From positions 4,837-68,836 of the forward strand of contig JAUVYH010000001.1 in assembly GCA_030603165.1 (NCBI GenBank): a DNA stretch of 64,000 bases, read 5' to 3'. This DNA comes from Fidelibacterota bacterium (GTDB taxonomy: Bacteria; Fidelibacterota; UBA2242). Made by a program: the position numbers and the translations under genes. The notes under the pieces were generated by a model that made no database searches, was not told the origin of the DNA, and saw only the letters and a program-made list of their open reading frames with translations. How positions within the stretch are numbered: position 1 is the stretch's first letter; each line of letters starts with the position of its first letter. Positions 13,711-48,556 of this stretch are shown here, in pieces.

Positions 13711-16317
13711 GTGAAATTGAAAAAATCAGAAAGAGATACTCGGACGAAAAGGGAAGATACCCTATCCGAATCTAAGAAACTTACCGGATGCCGCAAATGG
13801 TTTTTCTTTTTTGTGCTAACAGTGATTATACCCGCATTATTATTTTTACTTCTTGAGATCAGTCTAAGAATTATCGGGTATGGATACCCTACAGATTTTT
13901 TCATACCAAGACAGGTTGAAGGCAATCAAGTTTTCACTGACAATATGAAATTTACCTGGCGATTCTTCCGCCCGGAGCTGGCTCGTCCCTCCTGTCGTTT
14001 AGTCATACCTGCCGAGAAATCGTCCGATACTTTTCGAATATTTGTGCTTGGCGGGTCTGCTGCTATGGGAGATCCGGACTTTTCGTTTGGCTTTAGCCGG
14101 ATACTTGAGACTATGCTGCAGCATCAGTATCCCGACGTGCGATTTGAAGTAATCAATGCAGCTGTAACAGCCATTAATAGCAACGTTGTCTTGCCTATCT
14201 CCCGGGATTGCGCAAAGCTCCAACCTGATTTGTTTATCATTTACCTCGGAAATAACGAGGTGATTGGACCTTATGGACCAGGAACTGTATTTGCGCCATT
14301 TTCGTCAAATCTGGGTTTAATTCGGGCTAATATTTTTTTGAAGTCTACGAAGATTGGGCAATTACTGAATAGCTTAAGGCAGCAATTGGACACGGATGAA
14401 GATAACATGCAGACATGGGGTGGGGTGGACATGTTTGTCAAAAACCGATTGCGTTTCAATGATACGCGCATGGCGGCGGTGTATGAGCATTTTCGTGGCA
14501 ACCTTATAGATATATGCAAGACTGGACAGCGAGCCGGCGCTAAGGTCGTTGTCTGTACTGTGCCCACTAATTTAAAAAATTGCGCCCCTTTTGGTTCACT
14601 GCATCGTCGGGATTTGATTTATGCTTCAATAAGCGAGTGGAATGCGATTTACGACACCGGTATTGCTTTAGAGTCATCTGGCAAATATGAAGAGGCTATA
14701 GAGTATTATTTGAGGGCCGCCGGTATTGATGATGAATTTGCTGATTTACAGTTTCGTTTAGCCAGGTGTTACTGGAAATTAGGACAATATGGTGAAGCCC
14801 ACAAGCATTTCATTATAGCACGGGATCTGGACGCATTGAGATTTCGTGCTGATACTCAAATCAATGAAATAATCAGAAATGTTGCTGCTGACTGTAGCAG
14901 TGAAGGCGTGTCTCTTGTAGACGCGGAAAAAGTTTTTCAAGCGGACAACTCTCATGGGAGCCCGGTCGATGATCTCTTTTATGATCATGTACACATGAAT
15001 TTTAGCGGCAACTTTCTTCTTGCCCGGCTTGTTAAGGAACAGGTTGAAAATGTCTTTGGGATGGAAAGCCGGGGCAATACTCTTTCCCAGGTAGAATGTG
15101 CCGGACGTCTGGCGTTTACGCCCCGGGATAGTTACCGTATTCAAAAGGAGATCCTTGGAAGAATGAAGTCCCCGGCGTTCGCAAATCAGATTGACAATGC
15201 CGAATCAGTACGACATTTAGAAGCGAAACTGGACAGCATGAGAACATACTTAAAACAGGATGCGTTGACCCAAGCGGTTGAAAACTACCGCCGGGCTATA
15301 GAGATAAACGAGCAGGATTGGGTAGTGCGGAATAACTTTGGGTTGCTGCTTTTGGAAGCCGGCGGCGATCCTATTGGTGCGGCTGAACAGTTCCGTTCTG
15401 TCCTGCGTGTTTTCCCTGATGACTATTTGTCCCATAACAATCTGGGACTGGCATTCGAACAGCAGGGTAAAATAGATGAGGCAGTTGCCTGCTACGAGGA
15501 GGCATTACTAATCAAACCCAACTTTCCGAAAGCCAACTTTAATCTGGGAAAAGTTCTGGAACGTCAGGGTAAATATAAAGAGGCTATCAGGCATTACTAT
15601 CTGGCACATCTGCCGACACAAGGCTTGGCGGATGCGCACAATAGGTATGGCAAAAAGCTTGCGAACGATGGTAAGATGGATCAGGCCGTCAGCCAGTTTG
15701 AAGAGGCCATCAGACTTTGGCCCGACTCACCGAATGTACATCGTAATCTGGGGAATGTATTTGCACAGACGGGGAAAACAGATTTAGCGATTCAGCACTT
15801 TTCAGAAGCGGTGAGAATCATGCCTGAATTGGCAGCGGCGCATATAGACTTTGCGTCACTGCTCTTCATGCAGGGAGATTATGGAAATGCTATCGAGCAT
15901 TACAATAAAGTACTTCAGCTTAGACCTGACCTTCCTGAGGTACACAATAATCTGGGATTGGCTCTTTGCAAACAGGGAGAATTCGAGAAGGCAATTAAGC
16001 ATTTTCAAAAAGCGCTATTAGTCAGGAAGGATTTTCTCGCTGCCCGCAACAACATGGCCGGGGCGCTAAGCCAATTAGGGAGGAGTGAAGAAGCAATCAC
16101 TCAACTGAAAGAGGCACTGCGGATAAACTCAGACAATCCAGATTTCCATAACAATATTGGGGTTGAGTTGTTGAAACTTGGCAAGATCGAACAGTCCATT
16201 ACTCATTTTGAAAAGGCGTTACAGTTAAATCCCAAATTAAAAAGTGCACAGAATAACTTGGAATATGCTTTATCTCAGCTAAAAGATAGCGACAATGAGA
16301 AGCTATCTAAAGAATAG
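13711..16317 (+). CDS. Membrane-anchored SGNH/GDSL-hydrolase-like domain fused to a long TPR-repeat array (868 aa)
   Basis: GTG start; one TM helix; putative SGNH blocks 'FVLGGSAAMG', 'IIYLGNNEV', 'YDHVHMN' (DxxH); >=10 TPR units in the C-terminal half (e.g. 'AIEHYNKVLQLRPDLPEVHNNLGLAL'). Confidence 0.6.
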   Translation: MKLKKSERDTRTKREDTLSESKKLTGCRKWFFFFVLTVIIPALLFLLLEISLRIIGYGYPTDFFIPRQVEGNQVFTDNMKFTWRFFRPELARPSCRLVIPAEKSSDTFRIFVLGGSAAMGDPDFSFGFSRILETMLQHQYPDVRFEVINAAVTAINSNVVLPISRDCAKLQPDLFIIYLGNNEVIGPYGPGTVFAPFSSNLGLIRANIFLKSTKIGQLLNSLRQQLDTDEDNMQTWGGVDMFVKNRLRFNDTRMAAVYEHFRGNLIDICKTGQRAGAKVVVCTVPTNLKNCAPFGSLHRRDLIYASISEWNAIYDTGIALESSGKYEEAIEYYLRAAGIDDEFADLQFRLARCYWKLGQYGEAHKHFIIARDLDALRFRADTQINEIIRNVAADCSSEGVSLVDAEKVFQADNSHGSPVDDLFYDHVHMNFSGNFLLARLVKEQVENVFGMESRGNTLSQVECAGRLAFTPRDSYRIQKEILGRMKSPAFANQIDNAESVRHLEAKLDSMRTYLKQDALTQAVENYRRAIEINEQDWVVRNNFGLLLLEAGGDPIGAAEQFRSVLRVFPDDYLSHNNLGLAFEQQGKIDEAVACYEEALLIKPNFPKANFNLGKVLERQGKYKEAIRHYYLAHLPTQGLADAHNRYGKKLANDGKMDQAVSQFEEAIRLWPDSPNVHRNLGNVFAQTGKTDLAIQHFSEAVRIMPELAAAHIDFASLLFMQGDYGNAIEHYNKVLQLRPDLPEVHNNLGLALCKQGEFEKAIKHFQKALLVRKDFLAARNNMAGALSQLGRSEEAITQLKEALRINSDNPDFHNNIGVELLKLGKIEQSITHFEKALQLNPKLKSAQNNLEYALSQLKDSDNEKLSKE

Positions 16318-16379
16318 TATTAGACGAGAGGATTCGTGCAAATAACATTAACCTTTGGTGACCTAAATAGAATATTAAG

Positions 16380-18392
16380 GTGGATAAAATGAATCGTCAA
16401 CTTTTTAATCACATCTCGAGATTATTGTGTATATTTTTAGCGATAGTCACGATGTCTTGTAAACCAGCAGAAAATGCTAAGTTAAGAACAGGCTATCCCA
16501 TCACTCCCGTCTCATTTACCGACGTTGAATTATCAGATAATTTCTGGTCCGAGCGCATTAAAACCAACCGGGATGTCACGATTCCCTTTGGTTTTAAAAA
16601 ATGCGAAGAAGAAGGACGGATTCGAAATTTTGCCAGAGCCGGCGGATTACTCGAAGGCGAATATGAAGGGAAAATGCCATTCGATGATACAGATGTTTAT
16701 AAAATCATAGAAGGTGCTTCATATTCTTTGACGACAAATCCGGATAAAGAATTAGAAAAATATATCGATGATATTATCGAAAAAATTGCTGCAGCTCAGG
16801 AACACGACGGTTACCTGTGTACCTGGAAAACTTTAGCTCCCGATACAACTCCCGCACCTTGGGTTAAACCAGGACCACGCTGGCATCATTTGGGAGCCAG
16901 TCATGAATTATACAATGCGGGTCATATGTATGAGTCTGCTTTTGCTCATTATCGGGCAATGGGCAAGAGAAATTTTTTAAACATTGCTTTGAAGAACGCC
17001 GATTTAATTGCAGAAGTATTCGGTCCCGGGAAAAAGCTCGATCCGCCGGGGCATCAGATCATTGAAACGGGACTCGTTAAATTATACAGGATAACCCAGG
17101 ATAAAAAGTATCTCGATTTAGCGAAGTTCTTTTTGGACCAACGCGGCAATGCAGAAGGTCATAAGCTTCATGGACCTTATAGTCAGGATCATCAGCCGGT
17201 CATTGAACAGAAAGAGGCTGTTGGACACGCTGTACGTGCAGCTTATATGTATGCCGGAATGACCGATATCGCTGCTATGATGCAAGATTTATCCTATCTG
17301 AAAGCTGTTGACAACATTTGGGAAAATGTAGTATCGAAAAAAATATATATTACCGGAGGAATTGGTGCACGTCATGGTGGCGAGTCATTTGGTGATAATT
17401 ATGAGTTACCTAATCTAACTGCCTATAATGAAACCTGTGCAGCCATTGGAAATATTTATTGGAATCATCGGATGTTTTTGTTGCATGGAGATGCCAAATA
17501 TATTGACATTTTGGAACGTACGCTCTACAATGGCGTGATTTCGGGGGTGTCTCTGGAAGGGAATTCATTTTTTTATCCCAATTGTCTGGAATCTGACGGA
17601 AAATACGCATTCAATATGGGTGCCTTAACCCGTCAACCCTGGTTTGATTGTTCTTGCTGCCCTTCAAACATTATTCGTTTTATGCCGTCCGTACCGAATT
17701 ATATATATGCGCACCGAGATGATTCGATTTTTGTTAATCTTTTTATTTCCGGAAAAACCAGAATTGATATAGATAAATCAACTGTTGAAATCTGTCAAAA
17801 AACTGACTATCCTTGGGATGGAAAAGTTATTTTAAAAATTAATCCTAAGGAGGATAAGAAATTTGCAATAAATATCCGCATCCCCGGATGGGCACGGAAT
17901 CAACCGGTGCCAAGCGATCTATATAGATATCTGGTTACAAACAAGGAGAAGGTTACACTTAAAGTCAATGGTAATTACATTGATTTAAATATGGAGAAGG
18001 GTTATGCTCGCATTTGTAGAAAATGGCAAAAGGAAGATATAATTGAGCTAAATTTACCTATGCCGGTTAGACGTGTATTGGCTTGTGAGAGAGTAAAGAA
18101 TGATCTGGGAAGGGTGGCACTTGAGCGCGGTCCAATTGTTTATTGTGCTGAATGGCCTGACAACGGGGGCAAAGTTTTAGATATTCTATTGAGGGATTAT
18201 ATGCCTCTTAAGGTCGAATACCGGGGTGACATGTTGGGAGGAATTGCTGTAATTACAGGCGAGGTCATCCATTTGGATTCTACAAGAAGTGTCAGGAAGG
18301 GCACGACTAAAAGTTTTATGGCAATACCATACTATTCCTGGGCCCACCGCGGGGTGGGTGAAATGTCTGTTTGGCTAAAACATGATCAATAA
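16380..18392 (+). CDS. GH127 beta-L-arabinofuranosidase (HypBA1/DUF1680 family) lipoprotein
   Basis: 'NETCAAIGNIYWNHRMF' (E-x-C) and 'CSCCPSN' give the Cys3-Glu zinc/catalytic-Cys pattern of GH127; lipobox 'TMSC'; 670 aa. Confidence 0.8.
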   Translation: MDKMNRQLFNHISRLLCIFLAIVTMSCKPAENAKLRTGYPITPVSFTDVELSDNFWSERIKTNRDVTIPFGFKKCEEEGRIRNFARAGGLLEGEYEGKMPFDDTDVYKIIEGASYSLTTNPDKELEKYIDDIIEKIAAAQEHDGYLCTWKTLAPDTTPAPWVKPGPRWHHLGASHELYNAGHMYESAFAHYRAMGKRNFLNIALKNADLIAEVFGPGKKLDPPGHQIIETGLVKLYRITQDKKYLDLAKFFLDQRGNAEGHKLHGPYSQDHQPVIEQKEAVGHAVRAAYMYAGMTDIAAMMQDLSYLKAVDNIWENVVSKKIYITGGIGARHGGESFGDNYELPNLTAYNETCAAIGNIYWNHRMFLLHGDAKYIDILERTLYNGVISGVSLEGNSFFYPNCLESDGKYAFNMGALTRQPWFDCSCCPSNIIRFMPSVPNYIYAHRDDSIFVNLFISGKTRIDIDKSTVEICQKTDYPWDGKVILKINPKEDKKFAINIRIPGWARNQPVPSDLYRYLVTNKEKVTLKVNGNYIDLNMEKGYARICRKWQKEDIIELNLPMPVRRVLACERVKNDLGRVALERGPIVYCAEWPDNGGKVLDILLRDYMPLKVEYRGDMLGGIAVITGEVIHLDSTRSVRKGTTKSFMAIPYYSWAHRGVGEMSVWLKHDQ

Positions 18393-18518
18393 TCAAAAAT
18401 GATAATGTATGGAAAATGAAGCATAAACGGCTATATCGTTTTATGAATTGGAATAAATGTTACAAGGCAAATAATTCTGAAAGACAAATCAATTTATAGT
18501 AGGAGAAAAAGGCTAAAG

Positions 18519-20330
18519 ATGTATATACTTGGGATTTCAGCATATTACCATGATAGCGCCGCATGTTTATTAAAAAACGGAGTAATTCTAGCGGCGGCTC
18601 AAGAGGAAAGATTTACTCGCATTAAACATGATCACGCATTCCCTGACAACGCAATAAATTTTTGCCTTAGCAAGGAGAACATACATCCCGAGAATTTGGA
18701 TTTCATTGTATTTTATGATAAACCAATTTTAAAATTTGAAAGAATTTTATATACATATCTTCAGTTTGCTCCTTCCGGAATTAGGTCTTTCATTAAAGCA
18801 ATTCCATTATGGTTAAAGAAAAAAATATGGATTAAAGAGTATATAAGAGATAGCCTTAAATATTCCGGTGAAATCTTTTTTTGCGAGCATCATCAATCAC
18901 ATGCTGCATCAGCATTTTTTCCTTCTCCATTTCAAGAAGCCGCCTTTTTAACAATGGACGGGGTTGGAGAATGGGCTACCACAAGTTTTGGATATGGTCA
19001 TGATAATCAAATAGAAATTTTAGGAGACTTATATTTTCCCCATTCATTAGGCTTGCTATATTCTGCATTTACATATTTTACTGGGTTTAAAGTCAACTCA
19101 GGGGAATATAAGTTAATGGGACTTGCTCCGTACGGAGAACCTAAATATGTTGATACAATATTTAGTGAACTTATTGACTTGAAAGAAGACGGTTCCTTTA
19201 AACTAAATATGAAATATTTTGATTATTGTGCAGGCTTAACAATGACGAATAGGCGTTTTGAAAAGATATTCGATGGTCCACCTCGCAAGCCTGAAACTAA
19301 AATTACACAACGCGAGATGAATTTGGCAAATTCTATTCAAAAAGCTACAGAAGAAGTAGTTTTAAAAATGGCTGTGCATGTTCGCAAGGAAACCGGAATG
19401 AAAAATTTATGTCTTGCCGGTGGTGTTGCCCTAAATTGTGTTGCAAATGGGGAATTATTAAAAAAGCAATTGTTTGATAATATTTGGATTCAACCTGCTG
19501 CTGGCGATGCCGGAGGTGCTTTGGGAGCAGCAATGTATATATGGTATCAATATTTAAAACATAGACGGACAAGTGATGAAAAAAATGATAAAATGCAGGT
19601 GGCATATTTAGGACCAAGATATAGCGATGATGAAATTAAGAACTTTCTTGAAAAAAATAATATAGTTTATAAAAAATATTCTGATGACAGACTTTTTGAT
19701 ATTATTGCAGAGTTAATTGCGAATGAGAAAGTTATTGGGTGGTTTCAAGGGCGTATGGAATTTGGGCCAAGAGCCCTAGGCTCACGCTCAATAATAGGAG
19801 ACGCGCGCTCAGCTATGATACAGAAAAAATTGAATTTGATTAAATTTCGTGAGAGTTTTCGTCCTTTTGCAGCTTCAATTTTATTGGCTTATACATCAGA
19901 ATATTTTGATAATAATTCTGAAAGCCCTTATATGTTATTAGTATATAATCTAAAGAAAAAACATAGATTGCTTATATCAGGCAATAAACAATATACTGGT
20001 TTTAACAAATTAAATGTGGTTAGATCAGATTTGCCTGCAATTACACATGTTGACTATTCTTCCAGGATTCAGACTGTAAATGAAGAAACAAATCTTCGAT
20101 TCTACAAATTAATTGAAAAATTCAATAATAAATATAATTGTCCAGTTATTTTAAATACCTCTTTTAATGTCCGAGGAGAACCGATAGTATGCAGCCCTGT
20201 AGATGCATTTACATGTTTCGCAAATACTAATATGGATTATTTAGTGTTAGAAAATTATTTTATAGATAAAAAACAGCAGAATTATTTACCTAAATCAATA
20301 AAATATAAAAGAAAATTTGAGTTGGATTAA
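18519..20330 (+). CDS. Carbamoyltransferase (NodU/CmcH/SxtI family)
   Basis: N-terminus 'MYILGISAYYHDSAACLLKNGVILAAAQEERFTRIKHDHAFP' and 603-aa length are typical of NodU-family O-carbamoyltransferases. The stop overlaps the start of the next gene (taATGctaATG). Confidence 0.8.
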   Translation: MYILGISAYYHDSAACLLKNGVILAAAQEERFTRIKHDHAFPDNAINFCLSKENIHPENLDFIVFYDKPILKFERILYTYLQFAPSGIRSFIKAIPLWLKKKIWIKEYIRDSLKYSGEIFFCEHHQSHAASAFFPSPFQEAAFLTMDGVGEWATTSFGYGHDNQIEILGDLYFPHSLGLLYSAFTYFTGFKVNSGEYKLMGLAPYGEPKYVDTIFSELIDLKEDGSFKLNMKYFDYCAGLTMTNRRFEKIFDGPPRKPETKITQREMNLANSIQKATEEVVLKMAVHVRKETGMKNLCLAGGVALNCVANGELLKKQLFDNIWIQPAAGDAGGALGAAMYIWYQYLKHRRTSDEKNDKMQVAYLGPRYSDDEIKNFLEKNNIVYKKYSDDRLFDIIAELIANEKVIGWFQGRMEFGPRALGSRSIIGDARSAMIQKKLNLIKFRESFRPFAASILLAYTSEYFDNNSESPYMLLVYNLKKKHRLLISGNKQYTGFNKLNVVRSDLPAITHVDYSSRIQTVNEETNLRFYKLIEKFNNKYNCPVILNTSFNVRGEPIVCSPVDAFTCFANTNMDYLVLENYFIDKKQQNYLPKSIKYKRKFELD

Positions 20331-20758
20331 TGCTAATGGCTAGTTTAAAAAGTAAAACAGTAAATATTAAAAGCACCAAAAAAGAGTTAAGAAAGTTTGG
20401 CATTATTGTGGGATTTTTATTATTGTTAACAAGCGCTTTATTTTTCAAACTTCAAAAGCCGGGAAACGCATATTATTTAACCATTGGATTATTACTTATT
20501 ATTTCAGCTATTTTTTATCCAATGATTTTAAAGGTGTTTTATAAAATATGGATGACTTTTAGTAATGTTTTTGGGTGGATAATGACTCGTGTCATTCTCT
20601 TTTTATTTTATTTTATTATTTTTACGCCTATCGCAATAATCCTTCGAATATTTGGGGAAAGGTTTCTCGATTTGAATATCAATAAAGAGTGTAATACGTA
20701 TTGGAATGATAAGTTAAAAGACAGGAAAAACACTACCGATTTGAAAAAACAGTTTTAG
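20330..20758 (+). CDS. SxtJ-like small membrane protein (co-operonic with carbamoyltransferase)
   Basis: 142 aa, 3-4 predicted TM helices; start overlaps the carbamoyltransferase stop. The position and size match the sxtI-sxtJ-sxtK arrangement. Confidence 0.45.
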   Translation: MLMASLKSKTVNIKSTKKELRKFGIIVGFLLLLTSALFFKLQKPGNAYYLTIGLLLIISAIFYPMILKVFYKIWMTFSNVFGWIMTRVILFLFYFIIFTPIAIILRIFGERFLDLNINKECNTYWNDKLKDRKNTTDLKKQF

Positions 20759-20789
20759 TACTCAGATCTGTTATTTAGGAAAGGAAAAT

Positions 20790-20948
20790 ATGAGCAAATT
20801 ATCAATTTTATATGAATTTTGGGAATTTATAAAAGTCAGAAAAAAGTGGTATCTATTTCCCATTATACTTTTTTTATTGTTATTAGGTGTCGTTATTGTA
20901 TTCTTTGAGGGATCAGCCCTAGCCCCTTTTATATATTCAATTTTTTAG
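20790..20948 (+). CDS. DUF5989/SxtK-like 52-aa membrane peptide (not in ORF track)
   Basis: Translation 'MSKLSILYEFWEFIKVRKKWYLFPIILFLLLLGVVIVFFEGSALAPFIYSIF'. The pattern '(F/L)W.F..(V)RKK(F/W).L.PII..LLL.G..IV...GSA.APFIY..F' matches how I recall DUF5989 proteins. 30 nt downstream of the SxtJ-like gene. Confidence 0.5.
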   Translation: MSKLSILYEFWEFIKVRKKWYLFPIILFLLLLGVVIVFFEGSALAPFIYSIF

Positions 20949-21090
20949 AACCCGTTATAAATGTTGTTAATTTATTAAATTAGGATATTGGTTTAATGTA
21001 TGATGTATAGTACAAATTATAAATAGTGGGTTAATGAACCGTGAATTCAATTCGTAAGTACTAATCAAGAGTTTTTAAGGAAGGGGGCAA

Positions 21091-21300
21091 GCCATCAAAC
21101 ATTATCAAAAATCTTTAGAAATATTCCCAAATTGGCCAGAAGTACTTGTTCATCTTGGAATTCTCTATAATGATCTGGACAGATATGCTGAAGCCATTAC
21201 CATTTAGTAACGGTTTATTCTTATATTAAACAATACAAAAAGGCAAAAAGCAAGCTGAAATAGACCTTGCGGATTGATCCGCAATTTCAGCCCGGTTTCA
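21091..21300 (+). pseudogene. Decayed TPR-repeat gene fragment
   Basis: Open frame 'AIKHYQKSLEIFPNWPEVLVHLGILYNDLDRYAEAITI*' followed by '..IDPQFQPGFKAIKS' in another frame. TPR consensus, no start, stops. Confidence 0.4.
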
Positions 21301-21325
21301 AAGCAATAAAGAGTTCAATTAAAAA

Positions 21326-21977
21326 GTGAGAAGGAATATTATCATGGAAAAGCTGAGAACGGACAAAGATTATGACAGTTTGCTGAAGAAAGGTTTTTAT
21401 CTCAGCAATTTTGTTATTGTGATGCTTTTCGTGCTAATTGTCCAGGTTTTTAAAACATATGCCCAAGTAGGCGATATCGCAAAGGTTCACGATCCCTCTA
21501 TCATCGAACAAAATGGCACCTATTATCTCTTTGTTTCCTTTGACTACTGCTGTCGAGGAGTGGAAAGTACATACAAAATTATAGTGGGACGGTCCTCTCA
21601 ACTTAACGGGTGGTATTATGACAAGAACGGTAAATCCATGCTGTCCGGAGGAGGCGCTCTTGTGCTTATGAGCCAAGGTCGATGGCATGGTCCAAGCTCC
21701 AACGCTGTTTTTGTAGAAAACGGCTCTTGCTCAAAACTATCCCAATCCATTTAATATGAAAACGACGATAACCTATCGGTTACCCCAAGCAGCTAATGTC
21801 AATCTCTCCGTTTATAATGTAAGAGGAAGTGTAATAGCGATTCTGGCAAATGAACGGAAAAGCGAAGGTGTTCACAAAATAATATGGGATGGAAGCAACG
21901 TAAAATCAGATGTTTATTTCATAAGATTAGCGGCTGGAAGCTTCGGAGCAATTAAGAAAATTATTTTGATTAAATAG
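21326..21977 (+). pseudogene. Remnant GH43-like N-terminus plus T9SS C-terminal sorting domain, frameshifted and internally deleted
   Basis: 21326..21754 carries the GH43 N-terminal motif 'VHDPSIIEQNGTYYLFVS'. 21756..21977 (different frame) is a clean Por_Secre_tail 'LSVYNVRGSVIAIL...GVHKIIWDG...DVYFIRL..KKIILIK'. Combined length is far too short for a GH43 plus CTD protein. Confidence 0.55.
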
Positions 21978-30225: not shown

Positions 30226-31812
30226 TGTAGATAATTTTCTATTATGCAAGTTTTTATACAATGAAAACTATAAAAAAACTGTAATCTTAAAATTAATCTT
30301 CACTATGTGTACGTACACATAGTTAGTTTACATTAAATAGAATGTAATTGTCAAGTGTTTTATTGCTGGAATTGACCACCCCCGTTTTTTAGAATTCTAG
30401 TGTAATAGCGAGTTGGTGCTTGTTAATGTAGCATGTCTTTTTGTCAGGTAAGAATATTTTCGCCGTTACGGTAGCCAAAAGCATTTTGACTATCAGACCT
30501 ATTTTATAGTAGATGAATCCTAATATCTCATGCAGTCTATACTTTTCTATAGTTTTGATGGGACTGCATAGCAACAATTGATTATGGAGCGAACTTATCT
30601 CGGTGTATATTAAATACATAACAATAGTTAAAATTGATAACATCGTTCTCAAGCCCTCAAATTTTCTTAACTGAATATCTTCAAGATGGAATTGATTCTT
30701 GATATGTCGATGATATTCTTCGATTTTCCAGCGATAACCATATCCCCGAAAGGATTCTTCTACAACATCTCTTTCTGTTTTTTTATCGGTGGACACAATA
30801 TACCAACTATATCCTTTGCCTTCTCCCTTTAAAACAACCAGCCACAATTCATTTGGGAAAGGTAATCCGGTGTACTCATTGATAAACAGGACAGGAACAG
30901 CGCCGGCATAATAAATTTCCTTCCTGATTCGTTCTTCTTTATTTTCTGCGTCTCTAATCGATATTGGAGATTTACTTTTCTACTAATCCATTTCATACTT
31001 CTGACTTTTCCCCGATATATCAAATTACGTTTTCCTAATGATCGGATGATAAAGTTTAAACGCTTTCTTAATAATGGAACAATCAATTTTGTTCTATCTC
31101 CACCTCTGTCAATAACCCAGGTAAGTTGTTTGCCGACATGCTTTATTACAGTAAAGATTCCCTCCAGTATTTCACTATTCTCACTTTGTGTCCCCTCATT
31201 AAAGCTGTACAACTTGTTATAGAGCGGTGTGATTTGTTCTCCGGCGTGGTTTATTCCTATTATATTCATGAGCCGGTAGCCTATTCCGATAGAATCGGTG
31301 CTCCCATCGTGTACTCTTGCCAGCCCTTCCATCATTCTTGAATATTTCTTCTGAATATCAGATAAATCTAATATTGCATAATCACTCTTATTAATTTTGG
31401 AGCTAACCGACTGAATATGAGACTCAATCAATTTTCTCCAAAATCCTATCTTTTGAAAGTGACGCCGAAACCTCTCAAGCGTTTTCTTTAGTCGAATGCT
31501 ATCCTGAATATGAATTGCTATCTGGTTCATTGTAACCGATTGCCCTTTTAGTATTCCTAATACTGTTTCATGTACGAATCGGCTTTCCGGCTTTGTGATA
31601 TTCACAGATAATTTTTTAAGGTAATAGTTGAATTTTGTCTGTAACTTCTGTGTGTGTAATTTTGTCATAGTAACGCCTCCTTTTTTATGATTCTTTAACA
31701 ACCATAATTTAACAAATGGAGGCGTTATTATTAAATCATTTCTTCAAATAACTACCGTATTTATCAATTAGTTACGATAACACTATTACCGATTTCCAGA
31801 GGGTGCCAATCA
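30226..31812 (-). mobile_element. IS4-family insertion sequence, copy B (inverted, decaying)
   Basis: Nucleotide similarity to copy A across the whole element, including the tgtgtacgtacaca palindrome (30308..30321) and the SD-sequestering stem. Confidence 0.75.
30389..31701 (-). pseudogene. IS4-family transposase disrupted by 1-bp deletion (two ORFs 30829..31701 and 30389..30847)
   Basis: Copy A 'aagaagaaccgcatcaggaagg' versus the reverse complement of copy B 'aagaagaacgaatcaggaagg' (around 30945). ~90% aa identity to copy A on both sides of the frameshift. Confidence 0.8.
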
Positions 31813-33743: not shown

Positions 33744-35063
33744 TTGAAGAAAATGCATAAAATAATAAACGGTGACAGTCGACAGATGAATCTTGTCTCT
33801 GATAAGTCGGTACAATTGGTAGTAACATCCCCACCGTATTGGCAGCTGAAAGACTACGGAACAGAAAACCAAATAGGATATCATGAAGATTACGAAACGT
33901 ATATTAATAGCCTGAATTTGGTTTGGAAGGAATGTTACCGTGTGCTCGATAATGGTTGCCGTTTATGTATTAATATCGGAGACCAATTTGCTCGCGCTGT
34001 CTATTATGGACGTTATAAAGTTATCCCAATTCGAACTGAGATAATCAAATTTTGTGAAAGTATCGGATTTGATTATATGGGGGCTATCATTTGGCAAAAA
34101 CAGACCACCACTAACACGACAGGTGGTGCATCATTAATGGGAAGCTATCCTACGCCAAGAAACGGAATAATCTCTATTGATTATGAATTTATCTTATTGT
34201 TTAAAAAGTTAGGCTCACCACCTAAAGTAAGTAGGGAAATAAAGGAACAATCGAAACTTACAAAAGAAGAATGGAAAGAATATTTTTCAGGCCATTGGAC
34301 TTTTGGTGGAGCCAGGCAAGATGGTCATATTGCCATGTTTCCTGAAGAATTACCAAAGAGACTAATAAAAATGTTCGCTTTTAAGGGTGAGACAGTATTA
34401 GACCCTTTTATGGGGAGTGGAACAACATCTTTAGCTGCAAGAAACTTAAATAGAAATTCGATCGGCTATGAAATTAATCCCGACTTCATTGAGATAGCCA
34501 AAAAGAAACTGGGCGTTAACTATACAGATATTTCGGGAATAAAATATGAGTTCCCGAAAGATAGTTTCAATTTAGACATAGAAAGAAAACTTAATAATCT
34601 TCCTTACAGATTTGTTGATTTACAAAAGCTTGATAAAAAAATCGATCCCAAGAAAATGAGATTTGGGTCAAAAATAGATCAACATAATTTTCAAAGAGAA
34701 GAATATTACTCCGTAAAAGAAGTTCTCAGTCCTGAACTTATTAAATTAAACAATGACCTTGTGGTTCGCCTTATTGGTGTTAAACAAAAAGAATCTACAA
34801 ATGGACGAGCAATAAAGTTTATAATTGATAAAACAAAAGGGCAGAAGGTTTTTTTAAAATTTGATAATCAGAAATATGATAATGCAAACCATCTTTTATG
34901 CTATCTGTATTTAAAGAATAAAACTTTTATCAATGCTCACCTTATTAAAGAGGGCTTGGTTGAGCCGGCAACATCATTCGATTTTAAATACAAAGACAAA
35001 TTTTTTACTTTGAGCAATAATAAAGACACCATTAACCAGATGGAACAGATTATACAATGTTGA
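33744..35063 (+). CDS. Orphan beta-class DNA methyltransferase (N6A/N4C; motif IV SPPY before motif I) with C-terminal SNase/thermonuclease-like domain
   Basis: 'LVVTSPPYW' (motif IV), 'VLDPFMGSGTTSLAA' (motif I). C-terminal 'VVRLIGVKQKES...HLLCYLYLKNKTFINAHLIKEGLVE' resembles the SNase OB-fold (..RLLLVDTPE...[24 protein letters not shown]), but DTPE is replaced by KQKE. Appears AT-richer by eye. Confidence 0.75.
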   Translation: MKKMHKIINGDSRQMNLVSDKSVQLVVTSPPYWQLKDYGTENQIGYHEDYETYINSLNLVWKECYRVLDNGCRLCINIGDQFARAVYYGRYKVIPIRTEIIKFCESIGFDYMGAIIWQKQTTTNTTGGASLMGSYPTPRNGIISIDYEFILLFKKLGSPPKVSREIKEQSKLTKEEWKEYFSGHWTFGGARQDGHIAMFPEELPKRLIKMFAFKGETVLDPFMGSGTTSLAARNLNRNSIGYEINPDFIEIAKKKLGVNYTDISGIKYEFPKDSFNLDIERKLNNLPYRFVDLQKLDKKIDPKKMRFGSKIDQHNFQREEYYSVKEVLSPELIKLNNDLVVRLIGVKQKESTNGRAIKFIIDKTKGQKVFLKFDNQKYDNANHLLCYLYLKNKTFINAHLIKEGLVEPATSFDFKYKDKFFTLSNNKDTINQMEQIIQC

Positions 35064-42315: not shown

Positions 42316-42856
42316 GATATGATAAATAAAAAAGAATTTTTATTGATATTAGGAGAAGGTGATTGGAAAAATGGATTTCTCTAAACTGCGTAATATTACA
42401 ATCGGCAGAATCTTTTCCGAATTAAAGATTATCGAGCAGTGGGGACGAGGATTTTCTAATATTATTAAATCTTGTAAACAGTGTGAGAATATTGTTCCAG
42501 AATTTAAAGAAGAATTGTTGCAGTTTAAGATTATTTTTTGGAATAAGAAAATAGATAAAAGAGTCGGTGATAAGTTCGGAGAAAAGGTGGGTATAAAGGT
42601 CGGTGATAAGGTCGGTGATAAGGTGGGTAGAAAGGGTGGTCAGAAAGGGTGGTCAGAATTAACTGAACGACAGGAAGAAATATTAAATTTAATTGAACAA
42701 AATAACAAAATATCAAGAAAGCAATTATCGGAAATATTAAATATAAACCCTTCCGCTATCCAAAAACACATAAATAAACTAAAACAGAAAGGTCTTCTTA
42801 AAAGAATCGGTCCGGCAAAAGGTGGATATTGGGAGATTGTTTCCGATGCCCAGTAA
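42316..42856 (+). pseudogene. Internally deleted copy of AlbA_2/HATPase_c_4 HTH protein (N-terminal 16 aa fused out of frame to C-terminal ~165 aa)
   Basis: 42316 'MINKKEFLLILGEGDW' matches 'MNKKELSLILQEGEGY' of 43339. ORF 42359..42856 matches the C-terminal third of 43339..44712 (..KLKQKGLLKRIGPAKGGYWEI vs ..KLKQEGKLKRVGSAKGGYWKV). Confidence 0.65.
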
Positions 42857-43338
42857 ATACCCAGAAACTACCCGGAAAAAATTACAATGAATGGTTTTAG
42901 TTCGGAGAAATGTTGGTCAGAAAAGGTAGGCAGAAATGGTGGGTAGAAAAAGTGGTCAGTAAATACCCAGTAAATATTTACACCGAATGAGTATTCACAA
43001 TTTGTTCGGAGAAAGTTCGGAGAAAAGGTGGGCAGATAATAAACAGAAATCTAAAATATCACTGGAATGTCACCACTTGTCACCAGATGTCACTACGATT
43101 TAAAAAATGTAGATTAATATCAAATATGGAAAGAAAGATTGCACTAGAGGATTTGATGAGTCAAACTTAAGAAATATGAGAATGTTTTATCTAACATTTC
43201 CAAAATGTAACGCACTGCGTCACGAATTGAGTTGGACCCATTACTGCTGTTTTAATAAAGTTGAAAATTAGGAATTAGATAGAGAATTAACCAGAGAAAG
43301 ACAAATGATTGAATTGGAAAGAAGATTGGGGAAAAAAG

Positions 43339-44712
43339 ATGAATAAGAAAGAACTATCTTTGATATTACAAGAAGGTGAAGGATACTTCACAGAATTCAA
43401 AGAAGGACTTTCGGGTGTTGATAAAGATTTTGTTGCATTTGCAAATTCTTCTGGAGGTAAAGTATTAATCGGTGTTACTGATGACGGAAAAGTTAAAGGC
43501 ATAACAATAACAAATAGAATAAAATCTGAAATCCAAAATATTTCAAGAAATTGTGATCCAGAAATAAAACTTTTCGTTAAATCCTTTGAAAACATTCTTA
43601 TTGTAGAAGTAAGAGAAGGTAAGGATAAACCATATAAATGTTCATCAGGATTTTACAAACGGATAGGTGCAACATCTCAAAAAATGACAAGAAATGAAAT
43701 CTTAAGTTTCTTTAAATCTGAAGGTAAAGTAAGATTTGATGAACTTATAAATACAGAATTTAAATATCCCAAAGATTTTAACAGAGATAGGCTAAATATC
43801 TTTTTGGAATTAGCAGGACTTTCTAAAACATTATCAATTGATAAAATTCTCACAAGTTTAGGAGTGGTAGAGCATCAAAACGGAAATTTATATTTTAATA
43901 ATGCAGGTGTTCTCCTATTTGCAAAAGAACCTCAGAATATTATATCCTGGTCTGTGTTTACAGTAGTATTATTTAAGGACAAAGAAGGAGTTGATGTAAT
44001 TGATAGAAAAGAAATAACAGGATCATTATTTGAGATCATTGAGCAAGTAATGGGATTTGTGAAATTATATACAAAAGTTGCCTATAGAATTACTGGAAAA
44101 CCTCAAAGAGAAAATATATATGAATATCCATTTGAAGCAATTCGGGAAGCTGTCATAAATTCTGTTATGCATAAAGATTATTTTGAACGTGGACATAATA
44201 ATATACTGAAATTTTTCCCGGATAGAATTCAAATAGAAAATATCTGGGTCAAGCCACAGAACTTTATTCTGGGTAAAACTGTTTTTAGAAGAAATCACCT
44301 TATTGCTGATCTATTCTCTCGTATAAATTTTGGTGAGAAACTGGGTTCAGGTGTGAAAAGAATGAGGGATGTCTGCCAGAAAGAAAATTCTCCCTATCCT
44401 GAAATAGAATATACTAACACTCATTTTTATATTGTATTCAAGCAAAGTAAAGAATATTTGAAATTAGAGAGTATTACCCCAAAAACTACCCAAAAAACTG
44501 GGGTTAAAACTGGGGTTAAAACTAGGGTGAAAACTAGGGGGGAAATAATAAACCTTATTAACGAGAACTCTAAGGTAACCATTCGAGAACTTGCTGAAAG
44601 AACGAGTTTGACTGTTAAAGGAATTGAATGGAATATTAAGAAACTTAAGCAAGAGGGCAAATTAAAAAGAGTAGGATCTGCTAAAGGCGGATATTGGAAA
44701 GTGATAAAATGA
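43339..44712 (+). CDS. AlbA_2 (divergent AAA/Schlafen-like) + HATPase_c_4 + C-terminal wHTH protein, 'RecG-like' putative transcriptional regulator
   Basis: 'YFTEFKEGLSG...FANSSGGKVLIGVTDDGKVKGI' AlbA_2 N-domain; C-terminal wHTH; internal (TGVK)n tandem peptide repeat 'TTQKTGVKTGVKTRVKTRGE'. The ORF track starts at 43309, but the homologous remnant supports 43339. Confidence 0.65.
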   Translation: MNKKELSLILQEGEGYFTEFKEGLSGVDKDFVAFANSSGGKVLIGVTDDGKVKGITITNRIKSEIQNISRNCDPEIKLFVKSFENILIVEVREGKDKPYKCSSGFYKRIGATSQKMTRNEILSFFKSEGKVRFDELINTEFKYPKDFNRDRLNIFLELAGLSKTLSIDKILTSLGVVEHQNGNLYFNNAGVLLFAKEPQNIISWSVFTVVLFKDKEGVDVIDRKEITGSLFEIIEQVMGFVKLYTKVAYRITGKPQRENIYEYPFEAIREAVINSVMHKDYFERGHNNILKFFPDRIQIENIWVKPQNFILGKTVFRRNHLIADLFSRINFGEKLGSGVKRMRDVCQKENSPYPEIEYTNTHFYIVFKQSKEYLKLESITPKTTQKTGVKTGVKTRVKTRGEIINLINENSKVTIRELAERTSLTVKGIEWNIKKLKQEGKLKRVGSAKGGYWKVIK

Positions 44713-45149: not shown

Positions 45150-45225
45150 AAATAAATCAAAATAATAATCTGTGCGTATCTGTGAAAATCCGTGGAGAAA
45201 AAAAAAGAAAAGGAGATATATAAAG

Positions 45226-46247
45226 TGAACTACACAAAATCACTAAAAGGTAAACACCTTATCACAACACAGGATTGGGGAAAAGAAGAACTGGATATTG
45301 TTCTTAAGCTTGCAAAGGAAATGAAGGAAAACCGCTTTCATCATCCGTTATGTAAATCACTGGAGAATAAAAGTTTCTTTATGTTTTTCTACAATCCCTC
45401 GGTAAGGACCCGGCAATCTTTTGAGATAGCGGCTACCGAGTTAGGCGGACACGCCCTGTTTTTAGAGCCAAAATCCATGCGGCTTAAAACGGCAACATCA
45501 GCGGGAGAAACAATTGAAGACGCCGCCAAAGTAATGTCAAGATATGCCTGTGGTCTGGGCATCAGAATACTCGAGGATAAAATTCCGCATTATGGCGCCG
45601 GCGAAGACCTGATTCGGGAATATGCGCAGTATTCAACTATTCCAATCGTGTCCATGGCGCATGATAAATATCATCCATGTCAGGGGCTGGCTGATATAAT
45701 GGGAATTCAAGGGCATTTGGGCGAGCTTAAAGGTAAAAAGACGTTACTGACATGGGGACATGGCGCTCTTGCCCGGTCGTGGTGTTCGGTTCAGGAATAC
45801 CTGCTAATGGCTTCGAGATATGGGATGTCCATTAATCTTGCGCATCCTGAAGGTTATGATTTGGATCCGCAAGTAATCGAGCAGACAAAAAAGAATTGTG
45901 AACAGAATTCAGAAGAATTTAATATCACAAATGACGTGCAAGAGGGATATAAGGACGTCGATGTTGTCTATTCAAGAAACTGGATGAGTCCCCAGGCTTA
46001 TAGGGATGGTCAATTGCATAAAGAGCCGGAGATTGAAAAAGCATTACAGTTCAATGAATGGATATGTGATGCGGAAAAAATGAGATTAACAAATGACGCT
46101 TTATACATTCATCCGATGCCTGTTGACCGGGGCAATGAAGTTACGGATGAGGTCGCGTCAAGCCCTCATTCGATTATATACGATGTTGCCGAAAACAGAC
46201 TGCATGTTCAGAAAGCGGTGATGGCGTTGACAATGGGTGAATATTAA
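45226..46247 (+). CDS. ygeW: YgeW-like knotted carbamoyltransferase (OTCase/ATCase fold), paralog 1
   Basis: 'SVRTRQSFE' (STRTR-type carbamoyl-phosphate motif), 'KYHPCQGLAD' (HPxQ), 'INLAHPEGYDLDP'. GTG 45226 has SD aaggag; the ORF track start is 45192. Confidence 0.75.
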
Positions 46248-46276
46248 AAACATTAGCAAGATTCAGGGAGATTAAT

Positions 46277-47359
46277 ATGACAGTTAAAAGAATAAGAATA
46301 TTTGCGTTAGGCGGGAATGAAATATCCCCGGTTGACATTAAAGATAAAGATGGGAACTCTGTAAGCGCCGATATACCGATGCAGTGGCAAAGGACAGCGG
46401 ATACATGTAAGGAAATAGCCAATATTATCGAGGAGTTTCCGGAAGATTCTTTTATAATCATACATGGCAACGGTCCGCAGGTGGGAAATATTTTATTAAG
46501 AGCCGAACACTCTTTGGATATTTTACCACCGCTGCCTTTAGATATATGTGGGGCTGACAGCCAGGGCGCAATAGGTTATATGATAGGACAGCTTTTAAAT
46601 AATGAGCTGAGAGCGAGGAATATCAAGAGAGGCGTTGATACTATTGTAACGCAAGTAGTCGTTGATAAAAACGATCCCAATTTTAAAGACCCGAACAAGT
46701 TCATCGGACCTGCATTTACGAAAGAAGAAGCCTTCGAGCGTAAAGAAAAAGCCGGCTGGATTGTGAAACTTTATAAAAAAGATTCACACGGAAATGATAT
46801 ATGGCGGAGAGTTGTACCCTCTCCTCAACCCATAGATGTTGTTGAACTTGATCTGGTTCAATCGGCATTAGAAAAGGGAATTATTCCTATTACTGTCGGC
46901 GGCGGCGGCATTCCGGTAGTAGAAGTTGAAGCAAATAAAGAAGGTGTTTATAAGTGTAATTATAACATCGACTATAAAAACAATAATAATCCGAAAATAT
47001 TTATGGGTGTTGAAGCTGTCATTGATAAAGACCTTGCATCGGCGCTTATTGGAACATTATTGAGACAGAGATATAAACAATGCGGCGAGGATATTGAGGT
47101 AATAATGACAATTTTTACGGCAGAAGACGGAGCAAAGTTGAATTATCAAATGCCCGATGAAAAAAATCTGAGATTGGCTACTGTTGAAGAATTAAAAAGA
47201 TACTATAAAGAAGGTCATTTCCCGCCCGGCAGTATGGGACCCAAAATCAAAGCCATTATTAATTTTATGGAAAACGGCGGTGAGAAAGCCTATATCTCGC
47301 TGACTACGAAATATAAACAAACCATCAAGGGTGAAGCCGGAACAACTGTTGTTAAATAG
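46277..47359 (+). CDS. arcC: Carbamate kinase
   Basis: 'IFALGGNEI', 'IIIHGNGPQVGNILL', 'DSQGAIGYMIGQ', 'VVPSPQP', 'ITVGGGGIPVV', 'VIDKDLASAL', 'GSMGPKI' all align to E. coli ArcC/YqeA; carries a low-complexity insertion (KNNNNPK). Confidence 0.85.
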   Translation: MTVKRIRIFALGGNEISPVDIKDKDGNSVSADIPMQWQRTADTCKEIANIIEEFPEDSFIIIHGNGPQVGNILLRAEHSLDILPPLPLDICGADSQGAIGYMIGQLLNNELRARNIKRGVDTIVTQVVVDKNDPNFKDPNKFIGPAFTKEEAFERKEKAGWIVKLYKKDSHGNDIWRRVVPSPQPIDVVELDLVQSALEKGIIPITVGGGGIPVVEVEANKEGVYKCNYNIDYKNNNNPKIFMGVEAVIDKDLASALIGTLLRQRYKQCGEDIEVIMTIFTAEDGAKLNYQMPDEKNLRLATVEELKRYYKEGHFPPGSMGPKIKAIINFMENGGEKAYISLTTKYKQTIKGEAGTTVVK

Positions 47360-47479
47360 TAAAAAGGAACGAAGCCGTAAGTAATTTTGCTTTTAAGAGA
47401 ACGTAAAAATTCTATCTTATGAAAAAATATTATAAATAGCAGATTAGAGTTAGTAAATGATAAAATAGTAGGAGAACAC

Positions 47480-48556
47480 ATGAAGACAAACAAATTTTTA
47501 GGAAGAGACTGGATTGACGCCGAATTGGATTACACCAAAGAGGAATGGGAAACATTAATTGATATGGCGCTTTATTTGAAACGCCGTCATGCCATGAATG
47601 ATGATCAAAGCAATATTCTAAAGGGCAAAACTTTATTCTCTATGTTTTTCAATCAATCGCTGAGAACTCGCAGCACTTTTGCGGCGGGAATTCAGCAGTT
47701 GGGTGGAATTTATGTAGATCTGGAGCCAGGGAAGACATATACTCCGGCAAGAAAAGGTTTTGATATTCCGTATAAAACCGAGAGAATTTCTGATGTAGCC
47801 GGAATGTTGAGCCGGGTTGGGGACGCCATCGCCATACGCATGTACGGTCCCCCGGCTTATTGGATATATGGATTTGCTAATGCTTTAATAAAAGAATTTG
47901 CCGAATATGCCGACATTCCTATAATCAATATGGAATGTGATAAATACCATCCGACCCAGGCTCTGGCGGACCTCATTACTATCAAAGAAAAATTTGGAAC
48001 GTTTAAGGATGTGAACCTCACAATGTCCTGGGCATATTCCGGTTCTATCGAAAAACCGCGAGCCGTGCCTCAAAGCGTCATCCTGGCGGCGACTAAAATG
48101 GGTATGAACGTGACGCTGGCTCATCCGAAAGGATTTGATTTGGATCCTGAAATCATTAAAGCAAGTCAGCAATTTTCTGAGCAGACAAACGGTTCACTCC
48201 GGATAACCAATGACTTCGAAGAAGGCTTTAAGGGCGCGGACATTGTCTATCCTAAATCCTGGGGTGCCGTACCCTGCTTCAATTACACAGATGAAAGTGG
48301 TAATACCATTAAAGAGCAAAACCATGATGAAGCAGAAAGATTGAACAGTGCCAGCAAAAACTGGAAGACTACCGAGAAGGAAATGCGATTAATTAATAAG
48401 AATGGCATTTATATGCACTGTTTGCCGGCAGATAGAGGACAGGAAGTGACTGACGAAGTGATTGACGGACCCAGTTCGGTCGTTATTGATGAAGCGGAAA
48501 ACAGGCTGCACGCTCATAAAGCGATCATGGCCATGATTATGGGGGGACGACTGTAG
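47480..48556 (+). CDS. ygeW: YgeW-like knotted carbamoyltransferase, paralog 2 (closest to E. coli YgeW)
   Basis: 'SLRTRSTF', 'DKYHPTQALADL', 'VTLAHPKGFDLDPE', 'ADIVYPKSW', 'YMHCLPAD', 'AIMAMIMG' are near-identical to E. coli YgeW blocks. Confidence 0.8.
   Translation: MKTNKFLGRDWIDAELDYTKEEWETLIDMALYLKRRHAMNDDQSNILKGKTLFSMFFNQSLRTRSTFAAGIQQLGGIYVDLEPGKTYTPARKGFDIPYKTERISDVAGMLSRVGDAIAIRMYGPPAYWIYGFANALIKEFAEYADIPIINMECDKYHPTQALADLITIKEKFGTFKDVNLTMSWAYSGSIEKPRAVPQSVILAATKMGMNVTLAHPKGFDLDPEIIKASQQFSEQTNGSLRITNDFEEGFKGADIVYPKSWGAVPCFNYTDESGNTIKEQNHDEAERLNSASKNWKTTEKEMRLINKNGIYMHCLPADRGQEVTDEVIDGPSSVVIDEAENRLHAHKAIMAMIMGGRL

Follow-up and report, generated by a model that had tools for sequence, protein, structure and literature searches.

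The window analysed here is a 64,000-nt stretch of DNA from a Fidelibacterota bacterium (contig JAUVYH010000001.1 of assembly GCA_030603165.1), and all positions given below refer to it. Within a locus for arabinan utilization, at 18519-20948, it carries a triad of genes for a class III O-carbamoyltransferase, an SxtJ-family membrane protein and a DUF5989 (SxtK-like) membrane protein. This segment is a copy, accessory and foreign in composition, of a gene neighbourhood that is already catalogued, both through the Pfam families SxtJ and DUF5989 and, since 2008, through the saxitoxin literature. We consider it somewhat probable that it represents a widespread cassette that came to lie in the arabinan locus by an accident of genome history. 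The most likely function of the cassette, judging from gene fusions and neighbouring genes, would be the carbamoylation of a membrane-bound envelope glycan. For the source genome the segment appears to carry little weight, being an accessory island in a sugar-utilization locus with a coincidental arabinan context. The cassette itself ranks with the best-conserved and most broadly distributed bacterial gene modules for which no substrate is known. Our survey adds natural fusions of the enzyme with SxtJ, a frequent partner of the SGNH/tetratricopeptide repeat (TPR) type and a tendency toward surface-glycan genes. These features sharpen the hypothesis for SxtJ and SxtK, a question that dates from the 2008 description of the sxt cluster.

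A translationally coupled triad

An earlier note, made from the sequence of this DNA, had described a carbamoyltransferase gene whose stop overlaps the start of a gene for a polytopic membrane protein, followed by a 52-aa peptide of the DUF5989 type. All three open reading frames (ORFs) lie where it had placed them, are intact across 2.4 kb of AT-rich DNA, and were assigned to the same families by searches with PF02543/PF16861, PF19588 and PF19451 (Table 1). At the junction of the first two genes (...gat TAATG cta ATG...), the last A of the TAA stop codon of the enzyme is the first base of the first ATG of SxtJ, and this one-base overlap is a translational coupling of the two genes. Shine-Dalgarno-like sequences were found upstream of the enzyme gene (AGGAG at 18502-18506) and 6 nt upstream of the DUF5989 gene (GGAAAGGA). 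A promoter and terminator scan of 18300-21400 yielded nothing above shuffled expectation.

The enzyme consists of an N-terminal Kae1/ASKHA-like domain (PF02543, E=6.4e-104, residues 3-339, full profile length) and a C-terminal YrdC-like adenylation domain (PF16861, E=5.9e-68, residues 397-584). It contains a GPRALG motif and can be aligned from end to end with the solved structures of NovN, GdmN and TobZ, with E values from 5e-88 to 5e-71. The iron ligands of GdmN are H133, H137, D156 and D333, and its general base is H27 (PMC9633730); in a HMMER alignment, these residues correspond to H124, H128, D147, D330 and H11 of the window enzyme, and all five positions are invariant in an alignment of 18 homologs. 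Moreover, 187 of the 195 columns conserved at 95% or more among 80 sequences are kept. A carbamoyltransferase activity, dependent by class on ATP and carbamoyl phosphate, is predicted from these domains and catalytic residues. The identity of the enzyme as NodU was ruled out: it scores 127.2 bits against a cut-off of 1000 for the NodU equivalog (NCBIfam NF041651), and no nod-gene context is present.

Simple hydropathy gives no transmembrane segment for the enzyme, three for SxtJ (peaks at residues 23-41, 52-70 and 89-107) and one for DUF5989 (21-39). SxtJ matches PF19588 with 38.8 bits (gathering threshold, 24.4) and retains the 24 family-invariant residues in columns common to 39 homologs, the closest non-self homolog being 47% identical. 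In its AlphaFold2 (AF2) model, helices span residues 17-40, 46-62 and 64-113. The DUF5989 protein matches PF19451 with 72.7 bits (threshold, 27; E=2.4e-20), has many homologs, and keeps the invariant residues of its family; its N-terminus is basic, and its C-terminal tail is short and conserved.

Recurrence of the triad in other genomes

To survey the module, an alignment of the enzyme was compared with one genome per species, which resulted in 80 loci in more than 15 phyla. Two further loci, those of the closest enzyme homologs, were added to give 82, and the enzyme gene was recovered in 81 of them; SxtJ and DUF5989 neighbours were found with profiles built from the window proteins. The loci belong to Ignavibacteria, KSB1, Marinimicrobia, Planctomycetes, Nitrospirae, Acidobacteria, Gemmatimonadetes, Omnitrophica, Parcubacteria, Bdellovibrionota and Rickettsiaceae, among others, and between phyla the enzymes share about 60-68% identity. 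Of the 80 loci, 74 have SxtJ beside the enzyme, and 55 have DUF5989 there. SxtJ is encoded directly after the carbamoyltransferase in 71 of 81 loci, and the complete order of enzyme, SxtJ and DUF5989 is kept in 53 of 81; from the stop codon of the enzyme to the start of SxtJ homology, the median is 3.5 nt. This recurrence of the triad order is far beyond chance, and it bears out the statement in the earlier note that the triad is widespread as a stand-alone module. The SxtJ profile alone matches 13,409 representatives of clusters at 50% identity. A literature search for DUF5989, PF19588 and PF19451 returned nothing beyond the saxitoxin papers.

At two loci, the enzyme and SxtJ are fused in frame (L064, 10001-12220, 739 aa; L036, 1888-3912). 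These fusions provide the strongest support for the view that the enzyme and SxtJ would work as one unit, and they may be taken as evidence for a cytoplasmic N-terminus of SxtJ. The host genomes belong to Pyrinomonadaceae and Aegiribacteria, and a linker replaces the last ~15 residues of the enzyme.

An accessory segment of foreign composition

The GC contents of the enzyme, SxtJ and DUF5989 genes are 0.328, 0.277 and 0.270, respectively, compared to 0.40-0.45 in the flanks. At third codon positions (GC3), the enzyme gene has a value of 0.238, compared to 0.42 for the window; only one of the 43 ORFs has a lower value (z = -2.5 relative to 41 other window ORFs). The segment is therefore AT-richer than its surroundings, as the earlier note had observed.

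The closest relative, whose GH127 homolog (GH, glycoside hydrolase family) is 93% identical to that of the window, could be read on 18 contigs from several samples, and all 18 show the order GH51, GH43, TPR protein, GH127 and GH43 without the triad. In a blastn comparison of one of these contigs (L082) with the window, matches cover 15822-18471 and resume at 21226-21531 (12043-12349 of L082); together with an alignment, this places 2.8 kb of extra DNA at about 18450-21225 of the window. Besides this relative, GH127 homologs at 72-74% identity were found at three loci in unrelated contexts, again without the triad; the module is not syntenic with GH127. Both findings that the earlier note had named as refuting it, a 52-aa ORF lacking homologs and a module uniformly syntenic with GH127 and of native composition, are thus contradicted. 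No enzyme homolog above 68% identity was present among 5.8 billion proteins. The segment is regarded as accessory and foreign because of its absence from the 93% relative, its low GC3 and the lack of any enzyme homolog above 68% identity.

The window-specific DNA also contains a 42-codon fragment of a TPR-protein gene, ending in stops, which is absent from L082 and is probably a remnant of a gene that once stood 3' of DUF5989 in the source cassette. A kinship of TPR remnant and the C-termini of module-linked SGNH-TPR proteins was considered and rejected, the E values being 3e-4 to 8e-3 and TPR too generic. A second, weaker TPR-like remnant forms the right border of the extra DNA, and its stop overlaps the GTG start of a GH43 pseudogene.

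An imperfect direct repeat of ~39 nt (~65% identity; 18448-18486 and 21226-21264) flanks the extra DNA. The relative carries a single copy, nearest to the right-hand one; the repeat could be a scar of recombination or integration, or a chance likeness in AT-rich DNA. Repeat and tRNA scans at the borders detected no inverted repeats, target duplication, convincing terminal repeat or tRNA. Among the usual marks of a genomic island, the segment shows absence from close relatives and deviant composition; an integrase or transposase, terminal repeats, a target duplication and a border tRNA are missing. The triad copy was probably acquired. The horizontal insertion proposed in the earlier note agrees with the foreign composition and with the absence in the relative; as no integrase, inverted repeat, target duplication or tRNA was found at the borders, the event may have been a gain here or a loss in the relative.

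A frequent SGNH partner beside the module

An iterated profile, built from the SGNH part of an 868-aa SGNH-TPR protein encoded 2.2 kb upstream of the window triad, detected relatives in 40 of the 82 loci. At 33 of 81 loci, genes of this family were found no more than 1.5 kb away from the module (35 genes in total), compared to nine in 550 kb of distal flank; the family is roughly nine-fold enriched beside the enzyme-SxtJ-DUF5989 modules of other phyla. On the same strand, 11 of them are placed just downstream, nine just upstream and seven between SxtJ and DUF5989. The family retains both the Ser of block I and the His of block V, and an N-terminal anchor is present in 46 of 53 members. At the loci of the two closest enzyme homologs, the enzyme gene is followed by a 387-aa Lipase_GDSL_2 protein (L090) and by a 431-436-aa protein that has no Pfam match and fits the SGNH profile (L087). 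At three others (L038, L046 and L055), an SGNH-family gene of ~405-427 aa separates SxtJ from DUF5989; thus, DUF5989 is associated not only with SxtJ but also with the SGNH gene. At the window triad, no intact SGNH gene adjoins DUF5989, and the TPR fragment stands in that place.

The 868-aa protein itself has an N-terminal transmembrane segment at residues 30-48, and its Ser116 and His428 are conserved in its family. A sequence search of the PDB with its SGNH part gave TPR designs and one weak GDSL match only. It is a possible, not a proven, partner of the window triad. An 836-aa ortholog with one TPR fewer is present in the arabinan locus of the triad-less relative (L081-L086).

These observations bear on a possible carbamoyl relay, in which a carbamoyl group, loaded by the enzyme on the cytoplasmic side, would be passed across the membrane by SxtJ and DUF5989 and transferred to an exported polymer by an SGNH-TPR protein (in the window possibly the 868-aa protein, 13711-16317), in parallel with the acetyl relays of AlgI/AlgJ/AlgX, PatA/PatB and OatA. 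The enrichment of SGNH genes beside the module, including the seven between SxtJ and DUF5989, the conserved catalytic Ser and His, and the anchoring of the family members outside the cell are all consistent with such a relay, and TPR domains are typical of periplasmic scaffolds for polysaccharide export. Nevertheless, SxtJ and DUF5989 offer just three helices and one, respectively, with no similarity to the acyl-translocating MBOAT or AT3 proteins; about 60% of the loci have no SGNH gene nearby; and the SGNH-TPR gene of the window also occurs in the relative that has no triad. In addition, SxtL was proposed as a hydrolase in work on saxitoxin (PMC2885083). We therefore regard a relay of this kind as doubtful. 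By analogy, triad and anchored SGNH-TPR protein might form an unrecognized trans-envelope carbamoylation system, a counterpart of the acetyl relays, which we likewise hold to be improbable. If true, thousands of bacterial lineages would use it to decorate a surface polymer, and the saxitoxin genes sxtI-J-K-L would derive from it by co-option.

Comparison with known systems

In the saxitoxin cluster, sxtI, sxtJ and sxtK (1839, 405 and 165 bp) are followed by sxtL, a GDSL lipase gene of 1281 bp (PMC2679770, PMC2684587), and SxtJ and SxtK are still of unknown function in that literature (PMC2885083, PMC12300590). The window triad agrees with these genes in its three Pfam families, in their order and, nearly, in their sizes (603, 142 and 52 aa), so the resemblance that the earlier note had pointed out holds, and the GPRALG motif of SxtI, regarded as its catalytic site, is also found in the window enzyme. 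By annotation and position, sxtL after sxtK can be likened to the SGNH gene after DUF5989 in many loci. Given the frequency of the SGNH/TPR partner, sxtI-J-K-L looks like a co-opted four-gene unit. Unlike the sxt cluster, the window contains no other sxt gene and no intact SxtL-like gene beside the triad, and its host is an uncultured, non-cyanobacterial lineage. None of the core genes of the sxt cluster (an sxtA-like polyketide synthase, the sxtG amidinotransferase and dioxygenases) was found among 37 large ORFs of the window.

The families and order shared with sxtI-J-K (PMC2679770), and the fact that the solved homologs are all natural-product enzymes, would fit a role of the enzyme in tailoring the product of a saxitoxin-like or another secondary-metabolite pathway. 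Such a role is highly improbable, as Pfam searches of those 37 ORFs gave no genes of polyketide-synthase-like, amidinotransferase, dioxygenase, sulfotransferase or MATE type, and the cassette is spread over more than 15 phyla, including Parcubacteria of the candidate phyla radiation and Rickettsiaceae, mostly among housekeeping and glycan genes.

TobZ, GdmN and NovN share with the window enzyme a two-domain architecture, the iron ligands and the general-base His, and because these are conserved, the same two-step mechanism via carbamoyl-AMP is expected. They differ from it in being soluble, in acting on antibiotic substrates and in having no SxtJ or DUF5989 partners. GdmN and NovN further possess a C-terminal dimerization domain of ~100 aa that is missing in the window enzyme, whereas the subfamily of the window enzyme is extended by additional segments, one behind the acceptor-binding helix (residues 86-108) and another at 475-505. 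We also considered an amphipathic membrane-binding helix at 86-108 and kept it as a weak lead only, as the peak of the hydrophobic moment lies at 72-92 instead.

NodU and NolO belong to the same enzyme family as the window enzyme. Their acceptor is a hydroxyl of the chitin oligosaccharide of the Nod factor, the nearest precedent for the carbamoylation of a sugar. The acetyl relays, AlgI/AlgJ/AlgX, PatA/PatB and OatA, decorate alginate, cellulose and peptidoglycan. They have in common with the module the logic of a membrane component beside an anchored extracytoplasmic SGNH enzyme, often near polysaccharide genes. Their membrane parts are not homologous to SxtJ or DUF5989, and their donor is acetyl-CoA rather than carbamoyl-AMP; the likeness is one of analogy, not of membership.

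Proposed mechanism and possible envelope-glycan target

In the mechanism that we propose, carbamoyl-AMP would be formed from carbamoyl phosphate and ATP by the C-terminal YrdC-like domain of the cytoplasmic enzyme, and the N-terminal Kae1-like iron centre would then place the carbamoyl group on an acceptor hydroxyl, as in TobZ and GdmN. SxtJ and DUF5989 would serve as membrane subunits that tether the enzyme to the inner face of the cytoplasmic membrane, and they would probably offer it an acceptor embedded in the membrane or linked to a lipid, the likeliest candidate being an intermediate of an envelope glycan. This role as membrane subunits is suggested by the tight coupling, the enzyme-SxtJ fusions and the glycan-biosynthesis neighbours. 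The exported product may then, in many genomes, be acted on by an SGNH enzyme that is anchored in the membrane outside the cytoplasm and often bears TPRs; of such a downstream gene, the window would have kept merely the TPR fragment.

Besides the SGNH genes, recurrent neighbours of the module include glycosyltransferases (GT2, GT4 and GT9), Wzy_C, Bac_transf (initiating sugar transferase), UDP-glucose dehydrogenase, DegT and AsnB-like proteins. At least one glycan-biosynthesis neighbour is present in 31 of 81 loci, and at least two kinds are present in 13 of 81; among the 81 loci, the SGNH gene is the only common neighbour. As a pointer to the target, this neighbourhood is suggestive only. The guess in the earlier note at a glycan or envelope component finds its support in these 31 loci, and it stays at the level of a suggestion.

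Several points weigh against our reading of the segment as a member of such a cassette with a glycan target. No acceptor is known for any member outside saxitoxin biosynthesis, and none was identified here; the census of glycan neighbours has no matched background control; and no integrase marks the borders of the extra DNA. With regard to SxtJ, the AF2 model is of moderate confidence (predicted local distance difference test, pLDDT, 75), and Foldseek found no match with E<1 for it in the PDB, generic helical hairpins aside. Three helices would also turn the basic C-terminus of SxtJ outward, and the topology may hence be ambiguous. The enzyme departs from its alignment at eight of the 195 conserved columns, compared to a median of two for its peers. 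SxtJ deviates at 16 of 54 conserved columns, which come from mutually close homologs, and is the most deviant sequence of its alignment. A degenerating SxtJ was considered and dropped, since a phylum-wide alignment has too few conserved columns. Finally, whatever came after DUF5989 has been lost in the window copy. The greater divergence of this copy and the loss of its 3' gene make relaxed selection possible.

A rival explanation would be a decaying passenger, that is, an acquired or ancestral cassette that lost its partner gene and no longer functions, with ORFs not yet disrupted. The deviations of the enzyme and SxtJ, the TPR fragment left alone 3' of DUF5989, the missing triad in the relative population and the internal deletion in the neighbouring GH43 pseudogene would all fit such a decay. 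On the other hand, the three ORFs are intact in DNA where stops arise easily, the five catalytic residues and nearly all conserved columns of the enzyme (187/195) are retained together with the invariant residues of SxtJ and DUF5989, and some 60% of the other loci have no adjacent SGNH gene, so that the partner is not obligatory. On balance, a decaying passenger seems unlikely to us, and we keep to an accessory copy of the widespread cassette as the preferred explanation.

The arabinan locus around the triad

As the earlier note had recognized, the surrounding genes are related to arabinan: two GH51 genes, GH43, GH127, an epimerase, araA/araD/araB and a symporter. According to Pfam matches, the order is a TonB-dependent receptor, two GH51 genes and a GH43 gene, the SGNH-TPR gene, GH127 and the triad. 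On the 3' side follow a broken GH43 gene, an orphan type-IX-secretion tail and an aldose epimerase, with araA/araD/araB and a sodium:solute symporter beyond them on the opposite strand. The best named matches are to candidate division KSB1 and Marinimicrobia, which makes a host from the Fibrobacteres-Chlorobi-Bacteroidetes (FCB) group probable. The features at and near the triad are listed in Table 1.

Table 1. Coordinates of the triad, the borders of the extra DNA and the upstream SGNH-TPR gene in the window
Feature	Position	Strand	Details
Membrane-anchored protein with SGNH hydrolase/transferase domain and TPR repeats	13711..16317	+	868 aa; Lipase_GDSL and TPR matches
Left end of extra DNA, spacer 5' of enzyme gene	18450..18518	+	alignment with L082; GC 0.278
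Class III (TobZ/NodU/CmcH-type) O-carbamoyltransferase (predicted)	18519..20330	+	603 aa; PF02543 + PF16861
SxtJ-family membrane protein	20330..20758	+	142 aa; PF19588
DUF5989 (SxtK-like) single-pass membrane protein	20790..20948	+	52 aa; PF19451
TPR-protein gene fragment, 42 codons ending in stops	21079..21204	+	TPR_1 E=6.4e-8, 32.5 bits (cut-off 27.8); GC 0.337
Weaker TPR-like 3' remnant, right border of extra DNA	21225..21329	+	~90% identical in relative; TPR_2 E=0.054 only

The position of the triad could in principle be functional, the triad serving arabinan or pectin use, for example by modifying arabino-oligosaccharides or by acting together with the SGNH-TPR protein of the locus. The triad does lie between GH127 and GH43 on the same strand, no terminator is predicted in the 126-nt spacer, and the SGNH-TPR homolog is close by. 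Yet the same locus exists without the triad in the relative, the three other GH127 loci also lack it, no glycoside hydrolase family is frequent beside the 81 triad loci, and the composition of the segment is foreign; moreover, an ATP-costly carbamoylation in the cytoplasm would make no obvious sense in catabolism. A role in arabinan use is very unlikely, and, like the saxitoxin-like pathway, it was rejected on genomic context.

The GH43 arabinanase ORF at 21326-21977 is a pseudogene from which ~180 codons are deleted: measured on the intact ortholog in the relative (361 aa), residues 1 to ~68 are joined in frame to residues ~250-317. It is followed by a separate 73-aa ORF that consists of a type-IX-secretion sorting tail only. 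The block of araA/araD/araB and the symporter is inverted with respect to the locus of the relative.

Other segments of the window

A second low-GC island was observed at 42359-44712 (GC ~0.30; GC3 0.21, the lowest in the window). It encodes a winged-helix protein and a Schlafen/AlbA_2-HATPase_c_4-wHTH protein, by appearance a defence or mobile-element pair. In addition, DDE transposase genes, one of which is broken into two ORFs, and a gene for an N6/N4 DNA methylase are located at 242-1555, 30389-31701 and 33744-35063; these are further signs of many acquired or rearranged segments in the contig.

At 45192-48556, two genes for carbamoyltransferases of the ornithine carbamoyltransferase (OTCase) family stand on either side of a carbamate-kinase-like gene. 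They are set within a cluster of xanthine-dehydrogenase-type molybdoenzyme, amidohydrolase and pyridoxal phosphate (PLP)-enzyme genes at 32-61 kb, which resembles a pathway for the fermentation of purines or ureides. Such a pathway would produce or consume carbamoyl phosphate, the carbamoyl donor for the triad enzyme.

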